IMG/VR virus record: IMGVR_UViG_3300042564_003748
Location: 1-34,718 of that record
Strand: one strand, 5' to 3'
Length of the DNA: 34,718 bases
DNA from: a virus
Taxonomy: Duplodnaviria; Caudoviricetes
Positions 2,771 to 33,592 of this stretch are shown here, one piece after another; the stretch's first letter is position 1; each line of letters starts with the position of its first letter. The notes under the pieces were generated by a model. That model did not search any database, was not told the origin of the DNA, and saw only the letters and a program-made list of their open reading frames with translations. Both the position numbers and the translations under genes were made by a program.

Positions 2771-2772
2771 TA

Positions 2773-4062
2773 ATGAATTTTGTATTTGAAGATGTTTCTA
2801 CGTGTAGAAATTTTATAAATAATTGGGAGATGAATGGTGTTGGTTCATATAGATTTACCATATCACCGCTATTCAATAGAATGTTCATTTTAGGACATAT
2901 AATCGAAGGGTTTGACGCTAACGTTAAGATATTTGACATCAACGATAAACCTGAAAATTATATCGTACCAGTGGGTGTACACAATGATCCACACATTTGG
3001 GCGGGAGGAGAATTTTCATCCAATCAAGAGGTGAGAAGTTTGTTTGAATTTTTAAATGAAACCTATTTGGATGATTTAATAAATCGTAAAGCACATCTTC
3101 TAATTGACTCAAGTTTAGAGGGTTACCATGAAGATTGGGTATTTGATTTCTTCCACAAAGAATGTGATAAAAGAGGTATACCTGCTGACAGAATGATTTT
3201 TGTTACAGGTAATTCTATTGTTGAAGAACGATATGAAAATTGGTTGAAAGAGAATCCGAAAGAAGTAAGAATGGTACCATTACCATATTCACATTTCGAA
3301 AATGATGTTTATTTAACATCTAAACAAATGTTGGACAATAATGATTTACCAACTTTCGAGGAACAAGTAAACCATAAGGAAAATAATTTAGATAGTATTA
3401 AACTCTACAATAACTTAAACAAGAAACCAAGAGAACATAGAATATGGTTTTACAGTAAACTATTCTACAATGATTTATTAGAAAAAGGATTGGTTAGTAT
3501 GAACCAAATTCACGTTTCACAAAGAAGATATTGTGGTGAGTTTATGGAACAGGAGTATGTTGAGAATTTTGCTAATACTCTACCATCATTGATATATGGA
3601 ACATCGAATGAAATTGAGGATACCGGTTATTACATCAATAGAGTCAACCATAAAGTTTGTGATGATAGTTGGATTTCAGTAATTAGTGAGGCGAGATTTG
3701 AAGATGAGGAGGGTACGGTATTTTTAAGTGAAAAAGTTTTCAAACCTATTGCGTCTCATCACCCATTCATTATTATGGGTAACAAACATAGCCTAAGAGA
3801 AATGAAAAAGTTAGGTTATAAAACATTTTCAGATTGGATAGATGAAAGTTATGATGAGTTGGATAATTTAGAAAGAATGGATGCGATTATCAAAGTCTTA
3901 AAAGATATTGATAAGATTGAAAATAAATTAGAATGGTTCAAGGGTATGGAAGAGGTGTTAAAATTTAATTACCAAGTCCTAAAACAAAATGTGATTAAGA
4001 CATACCCATATGCCTTTAATAAATTAACCGAAATATACGGTGAAAAGAAAAAATTGATTTAA
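2773..4062 (+). CDS. Putative glycosyltransferase-like protein (GT-B/GT10-like 'SEK..KP' family)
   Basis: LNKKPREHR, SVISE...FLSEKVFKPI..HHPFI, LGYKTF..WIDESYD. Paralog of the C-terminus of 668, and of 5223 and 15224. Ends KKKLI. Confidence 0.55.
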   Translation: MNFVFEDVSTCRNFINNWEMNGVGSYRFTISPLFNRMFILGHIIEGFDANVKIFDINDKPENYIVPVGVHNDPHIWAGGEFSSNQEVRSLFEFLNETYLDDLINRKAHLLIDSSLEGYHEDWVFDFFHKECDKRGIPADRMIFVTGNSIVEERYENWLKENPKEVRMVPLPYSHFENDVYLTSKQMLDNNDLPTFEEQVNHKENNLDSIKLYNNLNKKPREHRIWFYSKLFYNDLLEKGLVSMNQIHVSQRRYCGEFMEQEYVENFANTLPSLIYGTSNEIEDTGYYINRVNHKVCDDSWISVISEARFEDEEGTVFLSEKVFKPIASHHPFIIMGNKHSLREMKKLGYKTFSDWIDESYDELDNLERMDAIIKVLKDIDKIENKLEWFKGMEEVLKFNYQVLKQNVIKTYPYAFNKLTEIYGEKKKLI

Positions 4063-5223
4063 ATGAAAGTTGGATTTATTGGTGTAGGTAAATTAGGTAA
4101 AGATGCTGCTGAAGTAATGTATGAAGCGGGACATGATGTTTTAGGATATGACACTAGAATTGTTAAAGGTTGTAAACATGAAATGACATGGTTAATTGAG
4201 GATGTTTGTACACACGGTGAGATTATTTTTATTGCGGTACCAACACCACACGACCCATTATATGATGGGAAATATCCCACATCACATTTAAAACCTAAAG
4301 ACTTTGATTATACAATTGTAAAAGATGTTCTAACTGAGGTTAACAAATACACAAATAAAAATCAATTAGTTGTTCTAATATCAACAGTTTTACCTGGTAC
4401 AATACGTAAGGAATTCATACCATTATGTACTAATTTTAGATTTATTTATAATCCATATCTAATTGCTATGGGTACTGTTAAAGAGGATATGATAAATCCT
4501 GAGATGTTAATAATTGGTACTGAAGATGGTAGTAGAACTGGAGATGCCAATATACTAACAGAGTTTTATGGGACGTTTATTAATCCAAAAACAAGATGTG
4601 AAATAGGAACGTGGGATGAAGCTGAGGCTATCAAGATATTTTATAACACGTTTATATCAACTAAAATTGCGTTAGTTAATATGATACAAGACGTTGCTGA
4701 AATTAGAGGTAACATCAACGTTGATGTAGTAACCGGAGCACTTGAAAGGAGTACGAAAAGAATTATTAGTCCTGTATACATGAAGGCAGGAATGGGAGAT
4801 GGAGGAGGTTGTCACCCAAGAGACAATATTGCTTTAAGAACTTTGTCATCAGAATTGGGTTATGATATTTTTGATTCTATAATGAAAGCCCGTGAAAAAC
4901 AAGCGGAAAACTTGGCAAAAAAATTAGAAAATCTATCTAAAGAATATGGTTTACCGGTAATTATTTTAGGTAAGTCCTATAAACCCGACGTTGAATATAC
5001 CGAAGGTTCAACATCGATATTAACAAGTCACTATTTGGAAAAAAATGGAGTTGACTTTAAGTTCGATTCAGAACCCGAAACAGCAATCTACTTATTGGCA
5101 CATAGAGGAAAGTTCTATGATTACCAATTCCCAAAAGGTAGCGTAGTATTAGATGTGTGGAGAGAATTTGAGACTGACAATAATGACATTAAAATTATCC
5201 ATTACGGTAACACCAGAAAATAA
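4063..5223 (+). CDS. UDP-glucose/GDP-mannose dehydrogenase family protein
   Basis: Rossmann GFIGVGKLG, IAVPTP, STVLPGT, EAIKIFYNTF...K, catalytic GGGCHPRD, and LGKSYKP. Confidence 0.92.
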   Translation: MKVGFIGVGKLGKDAAEVMYEAGHDVLGYDTRIVKGCKHEMTWLIEDVCTHGEIIFIAVPTPHDPLYDGKYPTSHLKPKDFDYTIVKDVLTEVNKYTNKNQLVVLISTVLPGTIRKEFIPLCTNFRFIYNPYLIAMGTVKEDMINPEMLIIGTEDGSRTGDANILTEFYGTFINPKTRCEIGTWDEAEAIKIFYNTFISTKIALVNMIQDVAEIRGNINVDVVTGALERSTKRIISPVYMKAGMGDGGGCHPRDNIALRTLSSELGYDIFDSIMKAREKQAENLAKKLENLSKEYGLPVIILGKSYKPDVEYTEGSTSILTSHYLEKNGVDFKFDSEPETAIYLLAHRGKFYDYQFPKGSVVLDVWREFETDNNDIKIIHYGNTRK

Positions 5224-6566
5224 TGAAAAGAAAATTAAATTTAGTATATGACGATTGGGCAGTAGGTGAAGAAAATCCCAAACCAAACGGTGTTAAAATA
5301 TACAACGGTGATTTATTTTGGGATGGTGAAATGTTAGTCAGAAATTATTATGATAGAGGATTAGCGTTTGGATACTATGAAGACCAATTCCCTGAAGAAT
5401 CGGATAGATTTGAAACCGTAAAATGTAGAATGGAGGATGTTAAACAAAATCCAAATCAAAAATACTACTACGTAATTGATTATTTCAGATTTGATTTATG
5501 TAAAGCACTTTGTTGTGGAGGAATAGAACACGGAGAAGTTATCGAAGCAGTTTTAAATCGTATCCCACCTATGGGAGAAGAGGTGTTAAAATCATTGAGG
5601 GAAGATGATAATTTCTTTCTTTTAATGATGACAGCACATGAACCTGAAGGTGTTAAAGCGTTCGAATGTCTAAATGAATTCGTGGAGAAACATTCCATCA
5701 ACCCCAAAAAAATATTCATTGTAAATAACAATAGTAAATTAAATGAATTAAAGCACACATATTCACCCGATGTGAATGTACACTCGTTAAAATTTATACC
5801 AAGTACATCAAACTATAGTTTAACAAGAGTTAATTCAAGATTCAATCCAAATAAAGAAGGTAAATTTTTCTTGTGTCATAACAGATCACCCAAGGTTCAT
5901 AGATATACTATCTTAACATTACTTAAACATGAAGGATTATTGGATGATGTGAATTGGTCATTAGTGCCAAGTTATAGTGCTGCTGACAGAGCATTTTTTG
6001 GCACACTATTGAATAGAGAAGATTTTAAAAAATATGACAATGAAATTGAATATTTCAGGTCAGTGGATATTAAGAGAAGTGATTACGAAGTGGATGAAAA
6101 GTGGTTTAAACCAAACACACCTGAAATTAATGTTGAGGGTTTACCTGTGTGGATGAGAGTACCCGAAAAAGAACTTACATTTGAGAATTCATATGTTAAT
6201 ATTGTGACGGAATCGGCATACATTAATAGTGAGTTTATTGTACATATAACTGAAAAATCATTTAGACCTTTTTATCATTATCAACTACCAATTTTCGTGG
6301 CGTCACATCATCACATTAAACATCTAAAAGAGATATACGGTTTTGATATGTTTGAAGACATAATTGACCACTCATATGATGACGTTGTAAATCACAGAGA
6401 TAGGTTATTTAAAATTGTGGAGGAAATTAAAAGATTGGATGGGAAGAAAGAGGAGATTAAGGAATTCTATAAGAACAATTATGAAAGATTTGAAAAAAAT
6501 AAAATTATAATATATAACATCCTAAAGAATACGGATGATTATTTATTTTTTAGAAATTTGATTTAG
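5223..6566 (+). CDS. Putative glycosyltransferase-like protein (paralog family)
   Basis: LNLVYD N-terminus, FLCHNRSPKVHR, SYVNIVTES...ITEKSFRPF, GFDMFEDIIDHSYD. Ends RNLI. Confidence 0.55.
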   Translation: MKRKLNLVYDDWAVGEENPKPNGVKIYNGDLFWDGEMLVRNYYDRGLAFGYYEDQFPEESDRFETVKCRMEDVKQNPNQKYYYVIDYFRFDLCKALCCGGIEHGEVIEAVLNRIPPMGEEVLKSLREDDNFFLLMMTAHEPEGVKAFECLNEFVEKHSINPKKIFIVNNNSKLNELKHTYSPDVNVHSLKFIPSTSNYSLTRVNSRFNPNKEGKFFLCHNRSPKVHRYTILTLLKHEGLLDDVNWSLVPSYSAADRAFFGTLLNREDFKKYDNEIEYFRSVDIKRSDYEVDEKWFKPNTPEINVEGLPVWMRVPEKELTFENSYVNIVTESAYINSEFIVHITEKSFRPFYHYQLPIFVASHHHIKHLKEIYGFDMFEDIIDHSYDDVVNHRDRLFKIVEEIKRLDGKKEEIKEFYKNNYERFEKNKIIIYNILKNTDDYLFFRNLI

Positions 6567-6568
6567 TT

Positions 6569-9394: not shown

Positions 9395-9400
9395 ATACAT

Positions 9401-9429: not shown

Positions 9430-9435
9430 TTAGGT

Positions 9436-12545: not shown

Positions 12546-12548
12546 AGT

Positions 12549-13556: not shown

Positions 13557-13557
13557 A

Positions 13558-14603: not shown

Positions 14604-14606
14604 AAT

Positions 14607-19647: not shown

Positions 19648-19767
19648 ATGATAAAGAAACTTATTAATTGGGTTAAAGCAAAAATTGCTAAAAGAAAAAA
19701 GGAAAAGGAATTTAAAAAGAAATTAGAAGAACTTAGAAGAAGAGACCCATTCATTTATAAACACTAA
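19648..19767 (+). CDS. Small basic protein (39 aa) with DPFIY motif, likely carbamoyltransferase partner
   Basis: Translated by hand: MIKKLINWVKAKIAKRKKEKEFKKKLEELRRRDPFIYKH. It fills the gap between flanking genes. PFIY resembles the C-terminus of SxtK/DUF5989 proteins. Confidence 0.7.
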   Translation: MIKKLINWVKAKIAKRKKEKEFKKKLEELRRRDPFIYKH

Positions 19768-19770
19768 TTT

Positions 19771-20499
19771 ATGTATTTTGATAAACCATTAATTCCAACT
19801 AACCAAGAGAACATATTTCATCTTGCCCCCATTCCTGTGTTTTTTAAACAGTATCATGACCATGATTTACATGATGAAGTTTTTAACTTAGGATTCAATG
19901 AGTTGACTGAGAAAGAAAAACAAATGGGACAAGAATTACCTGAACAATATGATGTCGAAAGACAGTCAAATTATAAGGTAGAGTATTATAGGTATGATCA
20001 ATGGGTAGAACCAACTGAATTCAATCCTATTGGTAGTCGTTTTTCAGTTCCACCTAACAATTTTTTAAATAGAAAGGAGGAATGTGTTAAGTTGATACGT
20101 AATAGATGTGAAGAGGGTTATCTTGAGTTATTAGACAAGATTAATAAAACACATAGCAATAATCCAAAGATAACTGAGAGTTGGATGCAGTTTTATAATC
20201 CAACATCTGGTAGAGGACACAATAAACATAATCATTGTAGGTGGTCACCAGATGAAGAGACACCACTTAGTTTTGTTGGTGGTTATTATCTTTCTGACGG
20301 AGACCCAATCGCAGATCACCAATATAGTGGTGTGTTTACTTTCCATATTAGAGGTATGTCATATTTTATCAGACCAAAGAAAGGAATGTTATTAATATGG
20401 CCATATGATGTTGTTCACTCAGTTAAACCATTCTACGGTAAAACACATAGATGTGTTATCAATTTCAATATTGAGGATGGTGGTGTAAAGTTATTATAA
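19771..20499 (+). CDS. Putative 2OG-Fe(II) oxygenase (TIGR02466-like)
   Basis: SW..F....GH.KHNH, GGYYL, P.KG.LLIWP....HSV.P, R..INFN. Ends VKLL. Confidence 0.75.
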   Translation: MYFDKPLIPTNQENIFHLAPIPVFFKQYHDHDLHDEVFNLGFNELTEKEKQMGQELPEQYDVERQSNYKVEYYRYDQWVEPTEFNPIGSRFSVPPNNFLNRKEECVKLIRNRCEEGYLELLDKINKTHSNNPKITESWMQFYNPTSGRGHNKHNHCRWSPDEETPLSFVGGYYLSDGDPIADHQYSGVFTFHIRGMSYFIRPKKGMLLIWPYDVVHSVKPFYGKTHRCVINFNIEDGGVKLL

Positions 20500-21818: not shown

Positions 21819-22545
21819 GTTTGTTAGAATTCTATGGGGTAACTTTAATGATATTAAGTTACAACCACTTTATAACGAAACGGTGTACGTTTGGGGGTTA
21901 GATAATTACAACAAATTAATTGACTTAGGTTATAAATGTGTATTAATATCAAATCAGAATACGATACATGACAACGAGAACACTAAATTTCTACATAAGT
22001 TAATTGGATTAAAAGAAGCATCGTTAAATCATGATAAGTTTATCTTCATGGATTGGGATGTAGAAATTGTCAGAGAATTGGATGATGATTTCTTCAGTGA
22101 GTTTGATGGTAAAGAATTTTTAATGCCGACATATTCGTACCCAATTGAATACCTTTCATTAACCGATAAACTATCGGATGTTGGGGCAAAAAATTGGACT
22201 AACCAACAAATAATAGAAATGGAAAGGTACGGTTGGAGAGAAGAAGATATAATTGTTTTACCTAACGCTGGTTTCATCTATTGTGCTGACAAATTCATAC
22301 CAAGTAGATTACTTGAAATTGCGTTGGAGTATAATCTAACAACTTTAGTGGAGGAGTTTGCTATGTTCATCTATTCACAATCCGATTTTAAGAGTTATAT
22401 TTTAAAATATGAACCATCAGTAATATTTGGTAGACCTATTGATACCATTTTTACCATCCATAACATAAAAAGAAACACTGAGATAATATTACATAATAAA
22501 ATTGAACAATTAATTAGAAAAAATGTCTACCTCACCCATCAATAA
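21799..22545 (+). CDS. Putative DxD (GT-A-like) transferase
   Basis: VRILWG, HKLIGLK.A, IFMDWD, LPNAGFIYC, VEE. Paralog of 20501. Confidence 0.5.
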   Translation: MDTRGIEFVRILWGNFNDIKLQPLYNETVYVWGLDNYNKLIDLGYKCVLISNQNTIHDNENTKFLHKLIGLKEASLNHDKFIFMDWDVEIVRELDDDFFSEFDGKEFLMPTYSYPIEYLSLTDKLSDVGAKNWTNQQIIEMERYGWREEDIIVLPNAGFIYCADKFIPSRLLEIALEYNLTTLVEEFAMFIYSQSDFKSYILKYEPSVIFGRPIDTIFTIHNIKRNTEIILHNKIEQLIRKNVYLTHQ

Positions 22546-23230
22546 AATATGGACATTCGGATGTTCCTTTTCGACAGATCACTACCTCCAAATGAATGAA
22601 ACTTATACAGGAGTTCTTTCAGAAAAATTGGGGGTTGACTACGAGAACTTTGCGGAAAGTGCGATGTGTCACGAAGAATGTTTTAATAGGTTAACTCAGA
22701 ATATGAATCGATTTGAAAAAAACGATTTGATAATCTATCAGTTTACTGCGGGTACAAGGGAAGGATTTAAAATCAATAATGATTTTTATTATACCAGTGC
22801 CGGATTGACCAGAGACTTGAATCTAATGTTCGATTTAATGAACAAATATTCAGGAGGTAGAGATAGATTTCCAATTAAAGATGACCAATTCATATTACTG
22901 TGTGATTATATGAATCATTGGGCACCTCATACAATATACCACAAATACCATAGAGTATTCAATACCTTAAGTTTCTTACAGAGTAAAGTTGGGATCAAGT
23001 ATAGAATTCTATGTTTAGATAATGACTTCAAACCATTTAGAACTGAACACTTTATTAATTTCCCAACAAGTTCCGATGAGAATAATTTATCAATAATGAA
23101 TTGGGTTGATGAAAATAAATGGACCTTAGGTGACACCAAACCCACCCAGGTTATGAGAACAGATAAACACCCTAATGAAGAGGGACATTATAATATAGGA
23201 ATACGTTTATATGAAAGCAATATTTGTTAA
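22523..23230 (+). CDS. SGNH/GDSL hydrolase-like protein
   Basis: WTFGCSFS, NFA, IIYQFT...R, DKHPNEEGH. Confidence 0.7.
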   Translation: MSTSPINKIWTFGCSFSTDHYLQMNETYTGVLSEKLGVDYENFAESAMCHEECFNRLTQNMNRFEKNDLIIYQFTAGTREGFKINNDFYYTSAGLTRDLNLMFDLMNKYSGGRDRFPIKDDQFILLCDYMNHWAPHTIYHKYHRVFNTLSFLQSKVGIKYRILCLDNDFKPFRTEHFINFPTSSDENNLSIMNWVDENKWTLGDTKPTQVMRTDKHPNEEGHYNIGIRLYESNIC

Positions 23231-24137
23231 TTGGACGGCACCTTTTTTCCATAAAAAGGATGCTCAAGGATATAACCATCTTAAGATGTTTGATTTACCT
23301 GACAATGAATATGACATCGTTGATTACGAGTTATTAATTCAAGAAGTTGCGGTTAGAAGTGCGAAGAAATACATAGGTCAAACTAAATTATACACTGATA
23401 ATGTTGGGTATGAATTTTACCGAAAAAAAGGAATGTTAGATTTGTGGGATGAAATTGATGTGGACACTTTGGAAAACTTTAATAAAGAATATCCTGAAGT
23501 TAATCCTGGTAGATTTTGGACAACAGGCAAATCAATAGTGATTGGTAAGGAACCGACACCATATCTATTTTTAGATTTAGATTTCATTGTTAGAGGTTAT
23601 CTACCATCATGGACAAACAACTATGATTTAGTTCACACACAATGGGAAATACAACGAGGAGAATTCTTTGTATTCGAACATCAATTAGATAAGATTGGAG
23701 GTATATCTGATTTCTCACAAAATATGATGATGCCCAACACATCGTTCATATTAATGAATAGTGATAAACTTAGGGATGAATATCTCAAAAAACATTTGGA
23801 TATTATAACTAGAAAATATGATGAGGTTCCTGAATGGTTATGGTTATTGGCGGACCAAGGGATTATGGGATATAGTGTGAGAAAATGTAAATCCAAGGTT
23901 GAAACTATTGAAAACAGATTATACATGTCATATCCTGAATTACCTGTATTAGGACCTAAGTTGCCAGGTAAAGGATTATTTTGGGTTAAAGACCCTAACA
24001 GAGTAGACCACATAGAAAATTTAGATTACTACCACGTATGGTTAGAGAAGTATTATTATAAAACAGACACCAATTTTAGAGATACCAAAGTCAAAGAACT
24101 ACAAAAAGAACTCGAATCACTTAAAGAAACAATTTAA
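23211..24137 (+). CDS. DUF6734-like putative DxD transferase
   Basis: KLYTD..G, FW..GK, PYLFLDLD, MPNTS, LADQ, YYHVW..K. Similar to 16962. Confidence 0.55.
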   Translation: MKAIFVNWTAPFFHKKDAQGYNHLKMFDLPDNEYDIVDYELLIQEVAVRSAKKYIGQTKLYTDNVGYEFYRKKGMLDLWDEIDVDTLENFNKEYPEVNPGRFWTTGKSIVIGKEPTPYLFLDLDFIVRGYLPSWTNNYDLVHTQWEIQRGEFFVFEHQLDKIGGISDFSQNMMMPNTSFILMNSDKLRDEYLKKHLDIITRKYDEVPEWLWLLADQGIMGYSVRKCKSKVETIENRLYMSYPELPVLGPKLPGKGLFWVKDPNRVDHIENLDYYHVWLEKYYYKTDTNFRDTKVKELQKELESLKETI

Positions 24138-24174: not shown

Positions 24175-24612
24175 ATGATATATTGGTTTACAGGTCAGCC
24201 TGGAGCAGGTAAGACCACATTAGCAAAACACTTAGTGGCATTTTTGATGAACACTAGTAAAGTCCTCCACATCGATGGTGATGATTTGAGAGACATATTC
24301 AAGAATAAAGACTATTCCGAAGGGGGTAGGAGAAAGAACATCGAGAGAGCACAAGACATTGCTCTTTTCATGAATGAAAAAGGTCATGATGTCGTAGTAT
24401 CATTAGTTTCACCTTACAGAGACCAACGAGAAGAATTTAAAGACAAATCTGAAGCAGTTGAGATTTATGTTCACACTACCGAAGAAAGAGGTCGTGAGAA
24501 TTTTCACGTTACCGATTACGAAAAACCTGAAGAGAATTACGTTGATGTTGATACAACAAACGTATCCGACGTAGAGTCATTTATTGATTTAATTAAAAGA
24601 ATAGATTTATGA
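24175..24612 (+). CDS. cysC: Adenylylsulfate (APS) kinase
   Basis: IYWFTGQPGAGKTTLA, IDGDDLR, DYS..GR..NI, VVSLVSPY...R, YE.PE. Confidence 0.85.
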   Translation: MIYWFTGQPGAGKTTLAKHLVAFLMNTSKVLHIDGDDLRDIFKNKDYSEGGRRKNIERAQDIALFMNEKGHDVVVSLVSPYRDQREEFKDKSEAVEIYVHTTEERGRENFHVTDYEKPEENYVDVDTTNVSDVESFIDLIKRIDL

Positions 24613-24989
24613 GTAAAAAGTATGCGTTGTATGTAGGCCGTTGGCAAAATTGGCACAAAGGTCACGAATGGTTAATTAACCAACAATTAGAAAAAGGTAA
24701 AAATGTTTGGGTGGCAATTAGAGATGTCCCACAAGATGAGAACAATCCTAAAACTGCGATTCAAATCTTACATGAATTATCCAATGAACCCTTTTTCAAA
24801 GATAATTTTGATAGAGTATTAATCTCAATCATTCCTGACATTGAAAGTATTAACTACGGTAGAGGTGTTGGTTATGATGTAATCTATCATGAGCCACCCG
24901 CAGATGTTGCGGTTATTAGTGGTACCGCAATTCGAACTGGTCACATGAAACCAGATGGAACAGTTACTTACGATGAAAATAAAGGATAA
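24609..24989 (+). CDS. HxGH cytidyltransferase-like nucleotidyltransferase
   Basis: GRWQNWHKGH, NP, YGRGVGY, ISGTAIR. Confidence 0.8.
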   Translation: MSKKYALYVGRWQNWHKGHEWLINQQLEKGKNVWVAIRDVPQDENNPKTAIQILHELSNEPFFKDNFDRVLISIIPDIESINYGRGVGYDVIYHEPPADVAVISGTAIRTGHMKPDGTVTYDENKG

Positions 24990-25213
24990 TGATAGTAGAA
25001 AGAAAAAGACACATAGCTAAAACAATATCGTATCGTATTATATCTACCTTAATTGGATTTGGTATTATGTGGTGGATAAGTGGTGATGTTAAAGTAGGTG
25101 CGGCCTTTGGTGTAGCTGAATTAGTGTATAAACCCATCCAATACTATCTACACGAGAGAGTATGGTATAAGTGGATTAAATTTGGACTAAGAAAAGAAAA
25201 GAATATAAAATGA
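24989..25213 (+). CDS. DUF2061 family small membrane protein
   Basis: RHIAKTISYR, hydrophobic hairpin, K...YYLHERVW...KFG. Confidence 0.85.
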   Translation: MIVERKRHIAKTISYRIISTLIGFGIMWWISGDVKVGAAFGVAELVYKPIQYYLHERVWYKWIKFGLRKEKNIK

Positions 25214-26442
25214 AAAATGTAGTTATTATTGGTGGCGGTACTGCTGGGTGGTTAACATCACTTTTTATACGGAAAAATTGGGTAGGTGTTAATATTACAT
25301 TGATTTCTAGTTCTAATATTGGAATACTTGGTGCCGGTGAATCAAGTACAACTAATTTCCCTGATCTTTTAATAGGATTAGATATAGATGAAGTTGATTT
25401 TATAATAAAAACTAAAGCAACAATAAAAATCGGTAATGAATTTGTAAATTGGAGAGGGGACGGTAAAAATATGGTACACCCATTTGTCGGTGGACCAAAA
25501 TCGTTACATGGATTCCATTTCGATGCCAAATTAGTTGCGGATTATTTACAAAACATAAGTTTAAATAGAGGTGTTAAACATATTGATTCAGAAGTAATTG
25601 GATTTAATCAATTAGATAATGGAGATGTAAATGAAATATTATTGACCAATGGAACTAAAGTACAATCTGATTTTGTATTTGATTGTAGTGGTTTTGCGAG
25701 ATTAATTATAGGTAAATTGTATAACCAAGAATGGATTTCATATAACAAATACCTTAATATCGATTCGGCGATTGCTTTTTTCCTACCACAAAAAGATAAT
25801 TTAAATCATGAGTCCGAAACCACAACCAAGTCTATAGGGATGAAGTGTGGTTGGATGTGGAATGCTCCACTACAACACAGATGGGGTTGTGGGTATGCCT
25901 TCAACTCAAACTACATTAATGATATTGAAGCAAAAAAAGAGGTTGAGGATTACGTTGGAGAGGAAATTACCATAGTGAAAAAATTTAACTTTAATCCTGG
26001 CACATATAAAAATTCTTGGGTTAATAATTGTGTAGCTATCGGACTCTCCTCGTCATTTTTAGAACCACTTGAGGCGACATCTATGTTAACGTCAATTATG
26101 TTATTGAGGAAATTAAAAAAATTTGATTTTAATCCAATTAATAAAAATGAGTTTAACGACTATTTTAATCACTTAAATGAACAAAATTTATTATTCATTA
26201 AGTATCAATATATGTGTGATAGAGATGATACTAAATTTTGGATAGACCAAAAAATGGTAGAAGTTCCCGATAACTTATTAAAGTTGGTGAATAGAAAGGG
26301 TGAATTGATAGTTAAATCAAACGATGAAATTAAATCGGCATTAAACATTGTGGACGATAGTCGTAGTTTAGTTTTTGGGTTTTATAGTTATAACACAATC
26401 TATAAGAAAAATTCGAAAAAATTTAGTAATTCATTAATATAA
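25210..26442 (+). CDS. Flavin-dependent (tryptophan) halogenase family protein
   Basis: IIGGGTAGW, GAGES, ATIK.G..F.NW (catalytic Lys region), FDCSGF, GWMWNAP (WxWxxP), F.EPLEATS. Ends NSLI. Confidence 0.88.
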   Translation: MKNVVIIGGGTAGWLTSLFIRKNWVGVNITLISSSNIGILGAGESSTTNFPDLLIGLDIDEVDFIIKTKATIKIGNEFVNWRGDGKNMVHPFVGGPKSLHGFHFDAKLVADYLQNISLNRGVKHIDSEVIGFNQLDNGDVNEILLTNGTKVQSDFVFDCSGFARLIIGKLYNQEWISYNKYLNIDSAIAFFLPQKDNLNHESETTTKSIGMKCGWMWNAPLQHRWGCGYAFNSNYINDIEAKKEVEDYVGEEITIVKKFNFNPGTYKNSWVNNCVAIGLSSSFLEPLEATSMLTSIMLLRKLKKFDFNPINKNEFNDYFNHLNEQNLLFIKYQYMCDRDDTKFWIDQKMVEVPDNLLKLVNRKGELIVKSNDEIKSALNIVDDSRSLVFGFYSYNTIYKKNSKKFSNSLI

Positions 26443-26448
26443 AGAGAT

Positions 26449-27102
26449 ATGGAAAAGTTATATTTTGATGAGACCACATATATTTGGAAAACAAAACTTA
26501 ATAAGTTAAATGAAAAGTCATCATTTTTAAAAGAGGCTTATTTGGTCATAGAATCTCAGCCAGATGTAAAAACGGACGGGTTCGGTTATAAGAAAGAATG
26601 GAATAATAATTTAAATTTTATTGGTGAAATTGAGGTTGAAACAAATTTAGATTACGTGGTTCAAAAAGGTATAAATCTTTGTAAAGAACTCTATGGGGAA
26701 AAAAATATACCTTATAATAAAATAAACACCGACTCTTGGGTTAATGTTGTAAGATCACAAAACCCGGTACAACTACAATTTCGACATGAGGAATTGAAAG
26801 GTGTTGATAAATTCCATGTTCACACCGATATTAATAGAGATAGTAAAACTTTTATACCACATTACACTTATGTATATTACATCCAAATGCCCGATGTAAT
26901 GAATGGAGAAGATGGTGTATTATACTTTAGAGGTAAAGACAATCAAGAGTTTTGGATTAGACCTGAAGAAGACGATTTTATTATAATGGAAGCCGATATG
27001 CCACATTCACCAAACAACGCTCCTGATTCGACAAATGATAGAATAGTTTTGGCGGGAAACGTTGGATTTGAATTTATTAAAAAAGAAAAATCGTTAATAT
27101 AA
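26449..27102 (+). CDS. Putative 2OG-Fe(II) oxygenase (TIGR02466-like)
   Basis: SWVNVVR, HVHTD, YVYYIQMP, G.L.F, PEE.D..I.....PHSP, RIVLAGN. Ends KSLI. Confidence 0.7.
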   Translation: MEKLYFDETTYIWKTKLNKLNEKSSFLKEAYLVIESQPDVKTDGFGYKKEWNNNLNFIGEIEVETNLDYVVQKGINLCKELYGEKNIPYNKINTDSWVNVVRSQNPVQLQFRHEELKGVDKFHVHTDINRDSKTFIPHYTYVYYIQMPDVMNGEDGVLYFRGKDNQEFWIRPEEDDFIIMEADMPHSPNNAPDSTNDRIVLAGNVGFEFIKKEKSLI

Positions 27103-27671
27103 TGTTTGTAAAATATATTGAGAATTTTTTAACAAAAGAAGAATGTGATCAGATTATCCTTTTAGGGGAATCCGTGGGACTAAGTCAAATGAAATCATCA
27201 TTAATTGTGAACGGTAAACTTATTGAAGAGAATGTAAGTTATGATGGTAACAAAAGAATGGGTTGTTATTTTTACGATGAATTATTAGAAAATGACGTAT
27301 TAAAAAATTTGACAAATAAGATTGTCGAATTGTCGAATAACTTAAACCCATTCAATGGTATAAATTATATTAAAGTACCGAAATATTCATTTAACAGATA
27401 TGGTGAAGGTGATTTTTTAGATTGGCATCCTGATAATCATGAAATATTAAACGGAGCAACAATTACATTTATCATTCAACTTAATGATGATTATGAAGGT
27501 GGAGATGTTAAATATATCACAGATGGGACCAATCAAACCACACCTAAAAAAACAGGAAGTGTATTAATATTTGATTCAAATATAGTTCATTCAGTTGACA
27601 AGGTAATAAAAGGAATCAGATATTCATTGAATGTATGGCCAAGTAAAACAATTAAACAATCGATATTATAA
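27102..27671 (+). CDS. 2OG-Fe(II) oxygenase (prolyl 4-hydroxylase-like)
   Basis: NFLTKEEC, Y..G....WHPD, QLNDDYEGG, G...IFDS...HSV..V..G.RYSL..W. Ends QSIL. Confidence 0.88.
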   Translation: MFVKYIENFLTKEECDQIILLGESVGLSQMKSSLIVNGKLIEENVSYDGNKRMGCYFYDELLENDVLKNLTNKIVELSNNLNPFNGINYIKVPKYSFNRYGEGDFLDWHPDNHEILNGATITFIIQLNDDYEGGDVKYITDGTNQTTPKKTGSVLIFDSNIVHSVDKVIKGIRYSLNVWPSKTIKQSIL

Positions 27672-28462
27672 TGTTAGTAGATAATAAATTCATTTATTTA
27701 AGTTTACCTAGATGTGCATCAACTGCGTTTAATTATTCATGTATTCTTAATGACGTAAGCTTACAAACATTCAACGGAGAATGGGAAAAATCTAATTTAG
27801 ATATTGATTTTAATTCAATTGATAAGTCTAAAATAATGGATTATATCTACCATGGACACGAATCGATAACAGACTTACAAAACAAATTTGGTAATGAGTA
27901 TCCGGTTATTGCGGTTAAGAGACAAAGACATGAAAGATTTTTTTCTCTATACAAACACGTTTTGTTTGATTTACAACGTACAGGATTTCATAGAATATAT
28001 GATGTTTTTAGTAACATGACATTAGACGAGCTATTTTTCTTTACCAAAGACGACCTATCAAGTAAGAAAAAACGTTGGGAGGTAATATGTGATTTATTGA
28101 TAAATTTGAAAATATTGGATGAAAGAATCGATATTTCTGTTACATCAAAATTTAAAAAATCTGAAGAGGAGTTTTTTAAGAAAAGTACAAAGGCTTATGC
28201 GGTTAATATGATTGATATATTATTAACCCCACTATCGTATTGGACAAACAATAACCAAAATATCATTTGGTTTGATTTTAACGAAATGGATAAATTTGAG
28301 GGTTGGGTATCTAAAACATTGGAAAAACCCTTTAAACTCTATTCCGTAAATTCAAGTAAACATATGGAGTGTAAAATCGTATTAAATGATGAGTTTAAAG
28401 AAAAATATGACAGTATTTATGATTATTACGATTTTCCTAAATTAAAAAAAAGTTTAATATGA
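27671..28462 (+). CDS. Sulfotransferase family 2-like protein
   Basis: KFIYLSLPRCAST (5'-PSB-like loop), HES, R...ERF.SLY (3'-PB-like), N.S, late Y..YD. Ends KSLI. Confidence 0.6.
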   Translation: MLVDNKFIYLSLPRCASTAFNYSCILNDVSLQTFNGEWEKSNLDIDFNSIDKSKIMDYIYHGHESITDLQNKFGNEYPVIAVKRQRHERFFSLYKHVLFDLQRTGFHRIYDVFSNMTLDELFFFTKDDLSSKKKRWEVICDLLINLKILDERIDISVTSKFKKSEEEFFKKSTKAYAVNMIDILLTPLSYWTNNNQNIIWFDFNEMDKFEGWVSKTLEKPFKLYSVNSSKHMECKIVLNDEFKEKYDSIYDYYDFPKLKKSLI

Positions 28463-28746
28463 TAGATTATAAGGAGATATTTGAAGCATGGAAAACATCA
28501 TATAAACCAACAGAAAAACAGGAAGAACAGGCAAGAGAAAGATTGGATATATGTTTAGGGTGTGACCATAGAAAAGAAGTACTAAAAGGTGTTAAATGGT
28601 CAGCATATTGTAACGATTGTGGGTGCCCAATAAACAAAAAAGTATTTTCGAAAACTTTTAACGCGTGTACCCAAAAAAAATGGGAGGAAGTTGATTCAAA
28701 ATACATGGACGTTGTCCCAACAAAATATAAGAATTCATTGATATAA
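28459..28746 (+). CDS. Small Cys-rich metal-binding protein (DUF6171-like)
   Basis: RL.IC..C...C..CGC....K......C...KW. Ends NSLI. Confidence 0.65.
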   Translation: MIDYKEIFEAWKTSYKPTEKQEEQARERLDICLGCDHRKEVLKGVKWSAYCNDCGCPINKKVFSKTFNACTQKKWEEVDSKYMDVVPTKYKNSLI

Positions 28747-28770
28747 CATATACATATATATAACTAATAC

Positions 28771-28799
28771 TTGACAAATATTATCGTTATCGGTATATT
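28771..28799 (+). promoter_or_regulatory. Putative promoter TTGACA-N17-TATATT upstream of the ATP-grasp-Hint gene
   Basis: Perfect TTGACA at 28771-28776, 17-nt spacer, TATATT at 28794-28799, followed by an A-rich leader before ATG 28823. Confidence 0.75.
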
Positions 28800-28822
28800 T
28801 ATATAGTAAGATAAAAAAAATT

Positions 28823-30313
28823 ATGAAAGCAACAATAATAGGTAGTGACTTACTTCAATCGAATGGTTCGGTTAAATTCTTAGAAATAAACACCAACACC
28901 ACAATATATAATGAGGGGGCGGATTTATTGGATTATGATTCATTGTTCACGATGTTAAATGACAATGAAATTAATGAATTCCATTTCATTTGGACGGAGT
29001 TGGACTCATACAAACCATTAACTGAACAATTCAGATTTAAGAAAATTTTAGAAGAAAAATGTGAAGAAAATAACATTTCTTTCTCAGAATACATGGTACC
29101 TGTAAATTCGGTAACAGTACCATATATTGAGGACGCTAGTAACAAATTCATATTGAGACAATCATTTGACACTACCGCATTGGTGGACGAAACATATTGT
29201 GCGGATAAATTTGAATTTTTCTCTTTAATGAGTGGAACAACATACGTACCTAAAACATATTTTACTTCAGATTTATTAACATTAGACACGTTAGATGAAG
29301 TTGACTTTAATGTTACTGACGTTCCAAATTTATTAGTTAAGCCGAGAAATCCTGGTTACAATTCACTTACTTATCCAGCGTTATATCGAGCATCAAGTTC
29401 AGCTGAATTAGCAACATTGAAAAGTGAATTAACAACAAGTGATTTAGTTCAGGAATTCATTTTCTCAGAAGATAACCTTGTTAATGGTAGATATTCAGTT
29501 ATTAGAAGTATTGACATTATATATGGTTCTAATTTGGATATTATTCATATGGGTGGTTACACACAATCCACAATAATTCCAATATCATTCACTCAAGATG
29601 AATTTGTAAGTGGGACCAACAAGTTAAATCAAAAAAGTAGATACAAATATATAACTAAGGAATTAGGTAATTCATCTCCTATTAACTACCATACTGATGA
29701 TGATAGCGTTATTTTAAAATTAGACGGTACTTTAACTGATGTTGATACAATCGCGTTAGGTGATTATGTTCGTTCAATTGATTATACCGATTTTAACGAT
29801 AATAAAGCATCCAAATTCGATGAAAAAATCTTCACATTTGGTTGGGACAGTAATTTAGTTAACGATAACGAAACATTAATTCAAACTGGAACTAGTTTAC
29901 AACATATGGTATCTGCTGCGGTTGATACGATTTATATTCGTATAACATTGTCCGATGGTAGAACGTGGACAGACTCACCGTCCGCAACATATTATATCGA
30001 AGAATCGGGATCAACATCCACAAGATTCGAAAAGGTTAATAAAATGTACGTTGGTGATAAGTTAGTAATTACCGATGCTTCAACCAATCAACTTACTACA
30101 GTTGAAATAACTGGTTTGGAGATGGAACACGCACAAAAAACCATTTATAGCTTAGATTTTGAACCATCCGATTTATTTTTAGTGGATATTGGTGATGGGG
30201 ATTTCAGTGTGATGCACAACTCATGTTGGTGTCCTTGGAACTATTGTGGTCACTGGTGTAATAGTAACTATTGTCCATCATGTAATGGAGGTGGTTTTGA
30301 AAGTAAACTTTAA
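28823..30313 (+). CDS. Circularly permuted ATP-grasp domain + Hint (intein-like) domain + C-terminal Cys/Trp-rich peptide
   Basis: ATP-grasp-like motifs: N-terminal GSD...G.VKFLEINTN, then DK....L...VPKTY, LLVKP, LVQEFI, IR. Hint block A-like HTDDDSVILKLDG....I.LGDYV (residue 290 onward), I.I.LSDGR, block F IYSLDFE..DLFLV, block G VMHN|S (Asn466). Followed by a 30-aa tail with 6 Cys. Confidence 0.7.
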   Translation: MKATIIGSDLLQSNGSVKFLEINTNTTIYNEGADLLDYDSLFTMLNDNEINEFHFIWTELDSYKPLTEQFRFKKILEEKCEENNISFSEYMVPVNSVTVPYIEDASNKFILRQSFDTTALVDETYCADKFEFFSLMSGTTYVPKTYFTSDLLTLDTLDEVDFNVTDVPNLLVKPRNPGYNSLTYPALYRASSSAELATLKSELTTSDLVQEFIFSEDNLVNGRYSVIRSIDIIYGSNLDIIHMGGYTQSTIIPISFTQDEFVSGTNKLNQKSRYKYITKELGNSSPINYHTDDDSVILKLDGTLTDVDTIALGDYVRSIDYTDFNDNKASKFDEKIFTFGWDSNLVNDNETLIQTGTSLQHMVSAAVDTIYIRITLSDGRTWTDSPSATYYIEESGSTSTRFEKVNKMYVGDKLVITDASTNQLTTVEITGLEMEHAQKTIYSLDFEPSDLFLVDIGDGDFSVMHNSCWCPWNYCGHWCNSNYCPSCNGGGFESKL

Positions 30314-30343
30314 TAACAGAAATAATTTAAAACATATTTTAAA

Positions 30344-30484
30344 ATGGCAGTAAAAGAAAGAGTAGAAAGACCGGCACAAACAATTAAACCAATTGTCGCT
30401 CCGTTATCAAACGCGGTTAAGGAAAAAATAGCAACAGCATTTCAAGCAGTTGTTAATGAGGTTAAAACCAAACACTTGGGGTAA
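30344..30484 (+). CDS. Small hypothetical protein (46 aa)
   Basis: Translated by hand: MAVKERVERPAQTIKPIVAPLSNAVKEKIATAFQAVVNEVKTKHLG. A-rich upstream context, and its stop is 3 nt before the next ATG. Confidence 0.7.
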   Translation: MAVKERVERPAQTIKPIVAPLSNAVKEKIATAFQAVVNEVKTKHLG

Positions 30485-30487
30485 TTT

Positions 30488-31309
30488 ATGAAACTATTCA
30501 CATATGGTGATAGTTGGACCGAAGGTGCTGGTGTCGACGTTGTTAAAGAAAATTTAATCGAAACAAGAGAAGAAAGAAAAAAATTTAGAAACGATAGGTC
30601 TTGGCCGACAAAACTTTCTAAATTAATGAATCTCGAAGTTCAAAACCAAGCAATTTCAGGATCAAATAATAATTTCACGTTTAACGAGGTTATTGAAAAT
30701 ATAAAATCTAATATAATAAATCCTGGAGATTTAATAATAATAATGTGGACATCATCCTTGAGGGATGATGTTCCTTTTTTCCCCAAAAACGAATGGCACA
30801 CATGGGGGTCCAATTTCATTAAAGAAAATTATAAACAAAAATGGTTTGTCTCTAAAGATTTAACCAAAAATTCAACATATAATGATTTCTTAATTAATTA
30901 TAAGGAATTTTTTATTGGTGAATTATTTACTCAAGATTATTATAATATAGTAAATCAAAATTACATTTTATTTATTCAAAAATTATGTGAACACTATCAA
31001 ATAAATTATATCTTTTGTGATGCGTTTGATAAAATGATTGATGAGATTAAATCAGAAAATGATAAGACTAATTTAATAAATAAAAATCCTTATTGGGGAT
31101 TCGGTGAGAAAACATTTAAAGATTTTTTAATTTCTAAAGATAATAAAATGGTATGGGAGTTACCCCAATTAGATATTTCTAAAACTCCAGGTATGCATCC
31201 ATCCGAAATTGGGTATGAATTTATTGCTGAAGAAATTTATAGATTTATAAATTCTAATAAAAATAATATTATTAGGTACGATAATAACAAAAAAATCAAA
31301 ATTTTGTGA
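30488..31309 (+). CDS. SGNH/GDSL hydrolase-like protein
   Basis: FTYGDSWTEG, NQAISGSNN, IIMWT...R, MHPSEIGY. Ends KIKIL. Confidence 0.75.
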   Translation: MKLFTYGDSWTEGAGVDVVKENLIETREERKKFRNDRSWPTKLSKLMNLEVQNQAISGSNNNFTFNEVIENIKSNIINPGDLIIIMWTSSLRDDVPFFPKNEWHTWGSNFIKENYKQKWFVSKDLTKNSTYNDFLINYKEFFIGELFTQDYYNIVNQNYILFIQKLCEHYQINYIFCDAFDKMIDEIKSENDKTNLINKNPYWGFGEKTFKDFLISKDNKMVWELPQLDISKTPGMHPSEIGYEFIAEEIYRFINSNKNNIIRYDNNKKIKIL

Positions 31310-31875
31310 TTCAATATAGTGTAAATGGTAATTTTTTTAACAAAGACGAGATTAATGATATTTTAACCTTTTGTAAAAAAAATGGAGAATCTTTTTCTTA
31401 CAACCCAAATGAAACTTGGGACTGTAAACGAATTTACGATGAAGAATTCAAACAAAAAATATTATCTAAATTTATTGAAAACATTAAGTCTAATGATTTT
31501 GAGTTATGGTTTGATTTCGAAACCTTCGATTTAAAAAATTTCAATATAAGTTTAACGTCCTATTATGATGGTAGATACCTTAATCTACATAAAGATAAGA
31601 CAAGTGAATTGACAACCGTAATTGTACTATCTGATGATTTTGAAGGAGGTCAATTTGTATTAACTGAAGATGAGAACCCACCATATAATTTTGAAACGTT
31701 AGATGGTTTGATAATATCCGATTTAAAGTTAGGGGATAGCATTTCATTTAACGGTTCTAAAACGTTTCATGGAGTTTTACCTGTGACCGAAGGTACAAGG
31801 TACGCATTGAACATATGGATGACCGAAACTGATTTCGATTACCCAAAACTAAAAAACAATAAAACATTGTTATGA
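31306..31875 (+). CDS. 2OG-Fe(II) oxygenase
   Basis: Y..G..L.LHKD, L.DDFEGG, F.G....HGV.PV..G.RY.L..W. GTG start overlapping the upstream TGA. Ends KTLL. Confidence 0.85.
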   Translation: MIQYSVNGNFFNKDEINDILTFCKKNGESFSYNPNETWDCKRIYDEEFKQKILSKFIENIKSNDFELWFDFETFDLKNFNISLTSYYDGRYLNLHKDKTSELTTVIVLSDDFEGGQFVLTEDENPPYNFETLDGLIISDLKLGDSISFNGSKTFHGVLPVTEGTRYALNIWMTETDFDYPKLKNNKTLL

Positions 31876-32525
31876 GAATTGCTATCGTTTGTAATGGTCG
31901 AAGTGGGTCAACATCATTAACATATTTCATTAATTGTTGTTTGTTGTTTGAGAACAAAAAACATTCTTTATTTTTTGAACCTTTTAATTATAGAAATTTA
32001 GATAAGGAGAAAAAAATTAAAAGAATTGATGAGATAGTAAATAAACAAAACGTACTAGTTAAGACTTTCATTGATAGAGACAATTTTCCGCACGAGTCAT
32101 TTAAAAATATTGAGGAGTATTGGGATTGGTTTTATACCTTTTTTGATAAAGTAATCGTATTAGAAAGAGAAAACAAAAGACTCCAATCCGAGAGTTTACT
32201 GTATCATCTAAAAATATCTGAAAATCAAACAGTAACACCTCATTGGCATAAACAAAAATACTATGACTTATCTATTGTTGATGAAAACGAAATTATTGGG
32301 TTAACTAAACATTTAGAATCTGAATCTAATTTTTTAAAATCAATATCAGATATGGGTTATCCACATTATACCTATGAGAAGATATTTGTGGATAAATGCT
32401 CGGAGACTATAACCGACTTATTAAATTATTTAGGTTTATCTTTCAATCAAAATTGTGTAGATAAATGGATTAACTCACCATATAAAAAGGTGAGGTTAGA
32501 TGAAAAAACAAATAAATTATTATAA
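31872..32525 (+). CDS. Sulfotransferase-like protein (Stf0-like)
   Basis: IVCNGRSGST, EPFN, VIVLEREN..LQ.ES, YE.IF. Ends NKLL. Confidence 0.65.
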   Translation: MRIAIVCNGRSGSTSLTYFINCCLLFENKKHSLFFEPFNYRNLDKEKKIKRIDEIVNKQNVLVKTFIDRDNFPHESFKNIEEYWDWFYTFFDKVIVLERENKRLQSESLLYHLKISENQTVTPHWHKQKYYDLSIVDENEIIGLTKHLESESNFLKSISDMGYPHYTYEKIFVDKCSETITDLLNYLGLSFNQNCVDKWINSPYKKVRLDEKTNKLL

Positions 32526-33592
32526 TGGTCAACCTTAAAGAATATATATGTTCAGTACCATTTAATGGTTTAGAAATACACGATAATAGTGCGTTCATGT
32601 GTTGTGCCAGTTGGTTAACAAAACCACTACCAAAAAATGGGGCAATTAAAGATTTATGGAAATCCGAAGAGGCAAAGGAAATTAGAAAATCTGTAACAGA
32701 CGGTTCATATAGGTTTTGTGATAAGAAACTTTGCCCATACCTAAGTGAATTACAAAAGTTCAATAGAACTCAAGTAGGTCCGGTAAAACATATTAATCAA
32801 GTATCGGATGAAATTAAAAACTATATTGAAAACGGCGAGGATAGTTTTACAAGTGGACCGACGATACTTCAAATGTCATTCGATAGGACATGTAATTATA
32901 AGTGTCCGTCGTGTAGGGTAGATATGATTGTGGCTAGTAGTGATAAAATTAAAACAATTAACTTAACGATTGACGAGATTGAGGAGGCTTATTCCGATTC
33001 AATCGAAACGATTTATTGTTCGGGTACCGCGGATCCATTTGCGTCGGTATCATATAGAAACTTTCTTAGAAACTTCAACCCCAAAAAATACCCTAATTTA
33101 AAATCTATACACCTACACACCAATGCTAGTTTATGGAATAAAGAAATGTGGGATAGTATGCCCAACATACATAAATATGTTCGTAGTTGTGAGATTAGTA
33201 TTGATGCGGGAACACAAAACACTTACGAAAACGTAACGAGATTAGGAGGTAATTGGGATAATTTATTAAACAATCTTAGATTTATCTCAACAATCAAATC
33301 AATTAGAAATGTAAAATGCTCATTTGTAGTTCAACAATCAAACTATAATGAGATGAGTACATTTTTTGATTTAATACGTTCAATTTTCGGTAAAAAAACT
33401 AAAGTCTTTTACGGTAGATTGACAAATTGGGGAACATTCTCCGATGAAATGTTTAAGTTTTTAGATGTTGCCGATGAAACCCATCCCGAACATTCATTTT
33501 TCTTAGAGGAATTTAACAAAGTGGCAATAAGTCCTTTTGTCTTTCATAATTTACATGATTTTATTGAAAAAAAGGAAACTAAGTTGATTTAA
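32525..33592 (+). CDS. Radical SAM protein with N-terminal SPASM/twitch-like Cys cluster
   Basis: C..PF...CC...W......IR.....G.Y..C....CP, then CNYKCPSC (CxxxCxxC), DPF, HTNA, ISIDA, FVVQ..N..EM. Ends TKLI. Confidence 0.9.
   Translation: MVNLKEYICSVPFNGLEIHDNSAFMCCASWLTKPLPKNGAIKDLWKSEEAKEIRKSVTDGSYRFCDKKLCPYLSELQKFNRTQVGPVKHINQVSDEIKNYIENGEDSFTSGPTILQMSFDRTCNYKCPSCRVDMIVASSDKIKTINLTIDEIEEAYSDSIETIYCSGTADPFASVSYRNFLRNFNPKKYPNLKSIHLHTNASLWNKEMWDSMPNIHKYVRSCEISIDAGTQNTYENVTRLGGNWDNLLNNLRFISTIKSIRNVKCSFVVQQSNYNEMSTFFDLIRSIFGKKTKVFYGRLTNWGTFSDEMFKFLDVADETHPEHSFFLEEFNKVAISPFVFHNLHDFIEKKETKLI

Follow-up and report, generated by a model that had tools for sequence, protein, structure and literature searches.

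A shared C-terminal tail marks the unrelated proteins of one phage gene module

Short C-terminal address or docking tags are known from several systems, among them peroxisomal targeting signal 1 (PTS1), which is bound by the tetratricopeptide repeats (TPR) of Pex5, the class I ligands of PDZ domains, and the EEVD ends of Hsp70 and Hsp90. Class I PDZ ligands carry Ser or Thr third from the end and a hydrophobic last residue. The C-motif-2 degrons of ClpX consist of basic residues followed by a nonpolar terminal dipeptide. The ATP-grasp enzymes RimK, LysX and ArgX act on peptide or protein carboxylates, and in the gene clusters for ribosomally synthesized and post-translationally modified peptides (RiPPs) the tailoring enzymes bind a leader. 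This study was concerned with a 34.7-kb virus record (IMGVR_UViG_3300042564_003748; about 31% G+C, genes on the plus strand), which was analysed at its full length and is called the window. Nine of the eleven open reading frames (ORFs) in the interval 25210-33592 end in a basic-rich tail of the form x-[LI]-[LI]-COOH, which is referred to as the tag. The two ORFs without it are 28823, which ends in ESKL and encodes the protein called the hub here, and 30344, which ends in KHLG and encodes a small partner. The tag marks one gene module built around the hub. A preliminary description of the window had given the nine C-termini, the seven codon pairs that encode their last two residues and the spacing to the following gene, and all of these matched on recheck; for the nine tagged genes in order, the distances are 6, -1, -1, -4, 76, -4, -4, -1 and 27 nucleotides.

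The features of the module, its neighbours and the dispersed tagged proteins are listed by window coordinates.

25210..26442, plus strand: flavin-dependent halogenase of the Trp-halogenase family (PF04820, E = 2e-88); tag NSLI at 26428-26439
26449..27102, plus strand: 2-oxoglutarate (2OG)-Fe(II) oxygenase (weak match to PF13640, E = 0.002); tag KSLI at 27088-27099
27102..27671, plus strand: 2OG-Fe(II) oxygenase (PF13640, E = 5e-13); tag QSIL at 27657-27668
27671..28462, plus strand: sulfotransferase-like protein (weak profile match to heparan sulfate 2-O-sulfotransferase, E = 0.007; no Pfam match); tag KSLI at 28448-28459
28459..28746, plus strand: 95-residue Cys-rich protein (CxxC...CxxCGC; 86 of 118 homolog ends [IL][IL]); tag NSLI at 28732-28743
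28823..29668, plus strand: N-terminal part of the hub, residues 1-282, with a circularly permuted ATP-grasp fold (AlphaFold2 model and structure match)
29690..30220, plus strand: Hint domain of the hub, residues 290-466 (NpuDnaB intein, Z 15.6)
30221..30313, plus strand: cargo of the hub, a variable 30-residue six-Cys peptide rich in Trp, Tyr and His and ending K-L
30344..30484, plus strand: 46-residue untagged partner with an amphipathic-looking stretch ending K-x-K-H-L (hidden Markov model, HMM)
30488..31309, plus strand: SGNH/GDSL-like hydrolase or acyltransferase (PF00657, E = 5e-6); tag IKIL at 31295-31306
31306..31875, plus strand: 2OG-Fe(II) oxygenase (PF13640, E = 8e-9); tag KTLL at 31861-31872
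31872..32525, plus strand: putative sulfotransferase, presumed so from a motif (no informative Pfam match); tag NKLL at 32511-32522
32525..33592, plus strand: radical S-adenosylmethionine (SAM) enzyme (PF04055, E = 1e-4); tag TKLI at 33578-33589
24175..25213, plus strand: untagged neighbours used as an internal negative control, namely an adenosine phosphosulfate (APS) kinase, a protein which we take to be nucleotidyltransferase-like, and a DUF2061 protein
2773..4062, plus strand: tagged protein located away from the cluster; tail KKLI ([IL][IL] at 6 of 8 homolog ends)
5223..6566, plus strand: another protein away from the cluster, probably tagged; tail RNLI ([IL][IL] at 7 of 11 homolog ends)
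19771..20499, plus strand: 2OG oxygenase-like protein with a possible tag, VKLL (2 of 5 homolog ends)

Pfam backs the names that the preliminary description had given to the halogenase, the 2OG oxygenases (two over the cut-off, one weak), the SGNH protein and the radical SAM enzyme (under the cut-off), whereas the two sulfotransferases are without a Pfam match. The three untagged neighbours likely serve to supply the sulfate donor.

For all comparisons the tag was scored as [IL][IL] at the C-terminus. The main background was a hub-negative set of three related records, two complete and one 63% complete, with no match to the close or the deep hub profile. Among their ORFs of at least 90 residues, 13 of 502 end in [IL][IL], compared with 9 of 11 in the interval (Fisher p = 4e-12). 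Counted record by record, the hub-negative set shows 9 of 221, 1 of 166 and 3 of 124. When the comparison was restricted to overlap-coupled ORFs of the hub-negative records, the count was 6 of 95 (p = 7e-8). Within the window, 4 of the 29 complete ORFs outside the interval end in [IL][IL] (2773 KKKLI, 5223 FRNLI, 16962 SFGLI and 19771 GVKLL), which gives p = 1e-4 for enrichment in the interval, and permutation of the labels within the window gave p = 0.002 for clustering. Thus, the motif is not equally frequent elsewhere, the enrichment is not due to chance, and the label is real.

Relatives were recruited by means of the hub protein, and they include records of 229-316 kb; whole-genome counts exclude one relative (G001), which was partly readable. 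In the complete relative G002, in which the cluster is inverted, 13 of 15 cluster ORFs are tagged as against 14 of 295 elsewhere, and in G003 the corresponding counts are 9 of 11 and 12 of 224. The tag is also kept within the families. Among distinct homolog ends of the nine tagged proteins of the window, in gene order, [IL][IL] was found in 27/27, 37/51, 71/79, 53/61, 86/118, 32/35, 35/38, 15/16 and 49/57. For the oxygenase at 26449, 50 of the 51 ends are two hydrophobic residues, and full-length database homologs of the radical SAM enzyme end in [IL][IL] in 104 of 117 cases and in two hydrophobic residues in all 117. By comparison, homologs of untagged neighbours end in [IL][IL] in 2 of 43 (APS kinase), 0 of 61 (nucleotidyltransferase-like protein), 0 of 53 (DUF2061) and 1 of 32 (carbamoyltransferase) cases. 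Members swapped in at other loci, for example SET and FkbM methyltransferases, are also tagged, and several paralogs of tagged proteins elsewhere in the same genomes are not. The 2OG clusters of two cyanophages had no [IL][IL] end among 25. In 2OG proteins the length of the tail past the fold, as measured with a crude pattern, has a median of 19 residues for tagged and untagged members alike and is thus uninformative.

The association with the hub was also seen when the search started from a tagged enzyme. This search yielded 79 loci. Among the 48 examined that were new, 44 had the hub and the remaining 4 stop at or just past the query gene. A scan with the halogenase returned only near-identical loci. 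The hubs fall into five groups that are 20-30% identical, and all are surrounded by the same tag. Among genes within five places of distinct hubs, [IL][IL] ends were found in 400 of 426, 222 of 428, 95 of 227 and 173 of 374 in four groups and in 49 of 121 in the fifth, counts that cover both sides of the hub and so include non-module genes. Co-variation of tag and hub amounted to small shifts between the hub groups, confounded by kinship. A multi-Hint group of hubs lacks Cys cargo, and its neighbours are still tagged. The idea that the tag serves only the tailoring of a Cys peptide was therefore rejected as a general rule. Since hubs without that peptide keep tagged neighbours, what the tag goes with is not the Cys peptide but either the ATP-grasp-Hint core with its partner or a conserved factor of the host.

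The preliminary description had argued that selection acts on the protein and not on the initiation region of the next gene, and the larger data set bears this out. An earlier table by gap used families chosen for the tag and was thus circular, so the analysis relied on an unselected set, the three genes downstream of each distinct hub. In this set the tag is present in 182 of 229 overlapping genes, 86 of 114 genes with a short gap and 87 of 136 with a gap of more than 5 nucleotides; the figures are 9 of 27 where the overlap is longer and 9 of 14 where no further gene follows. The last three codons of spaced genes show the same synonymous usage as codons inside the genes. For example, in non-overlapping genes Ile at the last position is encoded by ATA/ATT/ATC in 85/81/12 cases (83/80/16 expected), Leu at the penultimate position by TTA/TTG/CTA/CTT in 121/19/20/17 cases (114/26/19/19 expected), and Ser within the last three codons is drawn from both codon boxes. 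In 976 ends with two hydrophobic residues, where 191 Phe and 157 Val would be expected, Phe is found 38 times at each position and Val 25-32 times. Phe is thus depleted five-fold at tag ends though it is one base from Leu. A consensus was drawn from 24 tag-selected families with 439 distinct ends: a K-rich stretch is followed by K (242), T/S/K/N, L (350) or I (78), and I (329) or L (102). Lys is the commonest residue at positions -4 to -8, the third-last residue is S or T in 256 ends and K or N in 113, and the last is I or L in 431. A very different explanation is that the tail is a by-product of a DNA or RNA signal, either translational coupling through TAATG/ATGA overlaps and A-rich start regions or a cassette recombination site. 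The overlap does force the last codon of overlapping genes to end in A (ATA in 273 of 289 Ile codons), and in the hub-negative records overlapping genes end in [IL][IL] in 6 of 95 cases as against 1 of 243 when well spaced. However, 6 of 95 is far under 182 of 229, and because the tag persists without overlap, synonymous codons are free, and Phe and Val are avoided, selection acts on the protein tail. A translational-coupling artefact was largely refuted, in that the motif does not follow overlap rather than gene family, and we give an origin in DNA or RNA signals next to no credence.

The hub was modelled with AlphaFold2 from an alignment of 145 rows (predicted local distance difference test, pLDDT, 89.9; predicted template modelling score 0.83), which superseded a model from a shallower alignment of 36 rows (pLDDT 62.7). 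Residues 1-282 match permuted ATP-grasp ligases, namely YgiC (Z 10.2, root-mean-square deviation (rmsd) 4.0, 202 residues aligned) and GspS (Z 9.3), and residues 49-282 also match RimK and LysX/ArgX (Z about 6). This fold, which belongs to a carboxylate-activating family, had been overlooked in the preliminary description. D9, E21, N23, R112, D122 and R228 are invariant in the 145 rows and K173 is present in 144, so that the Asp and Glu-x-Asn metal ligands and the ATP-binding Lys are kept. The partner HMM matches at 35/35, 25/26 and 43/43 hubs of three groups, and in a fourth group an ORF of 25-36 residues follows 46 of 55 hubs, mostly ending N-S (L293-L371) and falling below gene-calling limits. 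A small partner, of 46-50 residues in most groups, is therefore found downstream of almost every hub. Because the hub model begins at YgiC residue 94 and the RimK match stops at residue 217, where the helix before the Asp strand would lie, we infer from the models that the partner is this helix, split off from the ATP-grasp fold.

Residues 290-466 of the hub form a Hint domain (NpuDnaB intein, Z 15.6, rmsd 2.0, 139 residues aligned). H290 aligns with intein position 1, so that His stands in place of the N-terminal Cys or Ser, and the C-terminal His-Asn is kept (H465 in 142 and N466 in 144 of 145). The residue after this Asn varies freely (S, G, A, V, Y or P). The position that we take to be the block F His is usually Asp (98 of 145), with His in 28. 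A splicing intein was rejected because there is no N-terminal nucleophile and the residue after the Asn is variable. The Hint domain is instead predicted to cut only at its own C-terminal end, and the hub is probably self-cutting. At other loci the cargo position is filled by a longer Cys-rich peptide, a Peptidase_S74 chaperone or a further Hint (second or third), and some hubs have no cargo at all. In some hubs (P0153, P0163 and P0181; L373-L412) a Peptidase_S74 fibre chaperone lies behind a Cys-rich cargo, hinting at a fibre-tip-like trimer. The 95-residue Cys-rich protein, for which DUF6171 is a lead only (score 0.88), accompanies 35/35, 40/40 and 26/26 hubs of three groups and 6 of 43 of the multi-Hint group; it goes with hubs bearing Cys-rich or S74 cargo. 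In addition, some hubs (L445-L524) have two or more Hint domains in tandem, of which the later ones keep an N-terminal Cys and end in His-Asn-Lys; these could form a thioester without an internal acceptor. No Pfam or PHROG family was assigned to the hub, and it had no match among 50,697 GenBank phage records, where a distant hub matched inteins only. Three matches were found in prokaryote genomes, all on contigs of metagenome-assembled genomes (MAGs) and possibly phage. One of the hub genes (L526) is on a 248-kb contig in a Flavobacteriaceae MAG, which is probably phage binned with its host.

Because its ATP-grasp fold is that of a carboxylate-activating family, the hub is the prime candidate for the reader of the tail, either by docking or through the free carboxylate of the tail, and we consider the chances of this reading to be evenly balanced. 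A single site on the hub would accept the tails of all the enzymes, and swappable hydroxylases, sulfotransferases, methyltransferases, the halogenase and radical SAM enzymes would act in turn on a substrate held by the hub, in the window likely the 30-residue Cys-rich peptide freed by the Hint domain. The partner would probably complete the ATP-grasp fold. Since ATP-grasp enzymes activate carboxylates, the site for the tail may be the ligase's own carboxylate pocket. A pocket for docking only, with enzymes taking turns on the held substrate, is a possibility that we favour less. Less probable again is covalent ligation of the tail to an amine, in which a split ATP-grasp ligase would recognise K-x-L-I-COOH, activate its carboxylate with ATP and join the tagged enzyme to a polyamine, to a lipid, to the cargo released by the Hint domain, or to a lysine in a virion or scaffold protein. 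This would be a sortase-like or ubiquitin-like system of new build. YgiC is a peptide-spermidine ligase (PMC11762307).

The search for other readers in the phage genomes also bears on the hub. Twenty G002 proteins have counterparts in both G003 and G007 and none in the hub-negative records, and the hub is the only untagged module member among them (the 46-residue partner is too short to pass this filter); those outside the module are glycosyltransferase-like, fibre-like, radical SAM or without a family. PDZ_2 (PF13180) was found in 0 of 5 related genomes with one model searched in phage genomes (control 14 of 14), and TPR_8 (PF13181), one short model, likewise in 0 of 5. ClpP is present in 2 of 5 and absent from the complete G002 and G007. 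A phage PDZ, TPR or ClpP protein as universal reader was thus not found, which is weak since single models were used. The preliminary description had proposed a docking signal shared by the tagged enzymes. The part of this that holds is that the tag marks one module with a shared scaffold as the likeliest reader, and the part that found no support is a PDZ or TPR reader encoded by the phage. A complex of the tag with 28823 and 30344, also suggested there, was predicted for hub residues 1-466, the partner, ATP and the last 32 residues of 27671. The median score was 0.32 (runs 0.27, 0.47 and 0.32), which is weak support, compared with 0.00 for the best of three controls, which include one with the hub swapped out and the partner kept. 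The runs share at least 43% of contacts, and the pLDDT of the tail is 34-38. In calibration, 116 of 157 solved complexes and 2 of 215 mismatches attained the mark for this score; among those at 0.60 or lower were only 18 solved complexes and both mismatches. The prediction therefore moves the odds for the hub as reader slightly and is no proof.

Several observations weigh against the hub as reader. The complex score is weak, was obtained for one tail and comes without a contact list, and by the calibration such a score is more often wrong unless the complex was likely beforehand. Position 7 of the hub, two before the Asp, where GspS-type enzymes have Arg, is Gly in the window and G, S, A or T in 145 of 145 rows. 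Cp1B needs R139, D141, E163 and N165 (PMC12568646), and since the hub lacks the corresponding Arg, ligase activity would depend on another one, R112 or R228, which may substitute. A Cys cargo would not serve as the substrate common to all hubs, because 40 of 43 hubs in one group run directly into a second Hint without Cys cargo and their enzymes are still tagged. Some tagged proteins lie far from the hub. Loss of the tag with loss of the hub is thinly tested, because the hub-negative records, two of them complete, are nearly without these enzyme families (3 homologs in G004, none in G005 and G006). Lastly, the tag is nearly constant while the hub diverges to 20-30%, and a conserved host reader explains this equally well.

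Such a host reader could be a protease. The tail would then be a degron of the ClpXP C-motif-2 type, or one for a PDZ protease such as Prc/Tsp, that clears the enzymes after a short window of time. Its basic residues and nonpolar free end resemble the MuA C-motif-2 degron CILEQNRRKKAI (PMC12723719), a conserved host reader fits the constancy of the tag across distant hubs, and ClpP is encoded in some of the related genomes, as noted above. However, the penultimate residue is Leu or Ile here and Ala in MuA, the tag is near chance level in the hub-negative relatives (13 of 502) and absent from the neighbouring supply enzymes, a generic degron would be expected on early and regulatory proteins too, and the weak complex signal required the hub. 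We judge a degron to be unlikely on these grounds. Equally doubtful is the proposal that the hub is merely co-inherited and the tail is an address for some other host or phage factor, such as a chaperone, a membrane or virion-assembly site, or an export route. An address would bring the enzymes together at the site of modification of a virion fibre or a polymer on the cell surface. This would suit the long fibre-like genes that the module often adjoins, of which a G002 homolog has a PHROG tail-fibre match, the hub cargos that end in a Peptidase_S74 fibre chaperone, and the tagged radical SAM, SGNH and glycosyltransferase-like genes that also occur in distant glycosylation regions. Yet the hub and its partner, which would have to be at this place as well, lack the tag, as do many paralogs within these genomes, and no common phage PDZ or TPR match was found with one model each in five genomes.

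The window comes from an uncultured jumbo phage of a kind that is abundant in aquatic environments and probably has Bacteroidota hosts. Sheath, portal and capsid genes of the T4-like type are present in the relative G002, whose capsid protein shares 53% identity with its counterparts in Flavobacterium phage immuto and in a phage deposited under the name Microcystis Mel-JY01. On this basis a Bacteroidota host is likely for the window phage, as judged from this relative and not from the window itself. A block of signal-peptide-like proteins in G002 (L084:15379-19315 and L085:318-3172), without a PHROG match, is 58-77% identical to that of G003, unlike the replication genes, which are only 22-38% identical between the two; by these identities the block is apparently a second recently exchanged module. 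In the window, a long glycosylation-type region (668-18011 and 20501-24137) contains nucleotide-sugar epimerases and a dehydratase, a DegT aminotransferase, a UDP-sugar dehydrogenase, a split thiamine pyrophosphate enzyme, several SGNH-like and DUF6734 proteins, and the family-less paralogs 668, 2773, 5223 and 15224. The genes at 20501-21268 and 21799-22545 are paralogs of each other, and their homologs share a conserved Y-F-x-H-x ending that is probably catalytic and not the tag. An uncalled ORF of 39 residues (19648-19767, plus strand) directly follows the carbamoyltransferase gene; it is rich in Lys and Arg, has no Pfam match and ends in RDPFIYKH, an ending that recurs at many related loci.

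No published description of the tag, the hub or the labelling scheme was found in a search that covered few subscription papers and no supplements, so that absence from print is not proven. The four-residue label is carried by some two dozen enzyme families and illustrates how these phages can exchange modifying enzymes within one pathway, since a newcomer enzyme would need only the tail to join it. The tag also tells which orphan oxygenases, halogenases and transferases of these phages work together. If the ATP-grasp hub does read or ligate the tail, it would represent a new principle of docking or protein conjugation and might serve as a ligation tool of four residues, and under conjugation four added terminal residues would be enough to recruit any enzyme to a modular assembly line. 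If the tail is merely a host degron, it would be a variant of a known degron type.

C-terminal address tags are known, and a phage module of tagged enzymes with a likely ATP-grasp/Hint reader fits no family tested. PTS1, PDZ and EEVD tags likewise use three to four terminal residues and a free carboxylate to bring unrelated proteins to one reader. However, the present tag is phage-borne, the five genomes have no PDZ_2 or TPR_8 match, and the candidate reader is an ATP-grasp/Hint protein. It departs from class I PDZ ligands in that Leu or Ile is strictly kept at the second-last position and Lys and Asn are tolerated at the third-last. The ClpX C-motif-2 degron (MuA tail; PMC12723719) likewise has basic residues and a nonpolar free C-terminus on unrelated proteins, whereas the phage tag ends in Leu/Ile-Ile, not Ala-Ile, and is concentrated in one biosynthetic-type module. 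In RiPP clusters a variable Cys-rich or aromatic peptide also lies beside a halogenase, hydroxylases, radical SAM enzymes and transferases, but here the common recognition sequence is on the enzymes and not the substrate, and the tag persists without a core peptide. A RiPP cluster was rejected in that the core peptide is not always present: the window and three hub groups have it, and 40 of 43 hubs of a fourth group have a second Hint instead. Bacterial intein-like (BIL) and pretoxin Hint domains and the BIL domains of Tetrahymena BUBL proteins share the Hint fold (Z about 15) and a terminal His-Asn before swappable cargo. Unlike them, the hub has no N-terminal nucleophile, and its Hint domain may be followed by a Cys peptide, by an S74 chaperone or by another Hint, or have no cargo. 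GspS, YgiC/YjfC, Cp1B, RimK and LysX/ArgX share their fold with the hub, in which the D..E-x-N metal ligands are invariant, and ligases of the GspS/YgiC type act on carboxylates, some of them at peptide or protein ends. The hub differs from GspS and YgiC in lacking the first 93 residues of YgiC and the R of R-x-D, in having a separate small partner, and in its fusion to a Hint domain.

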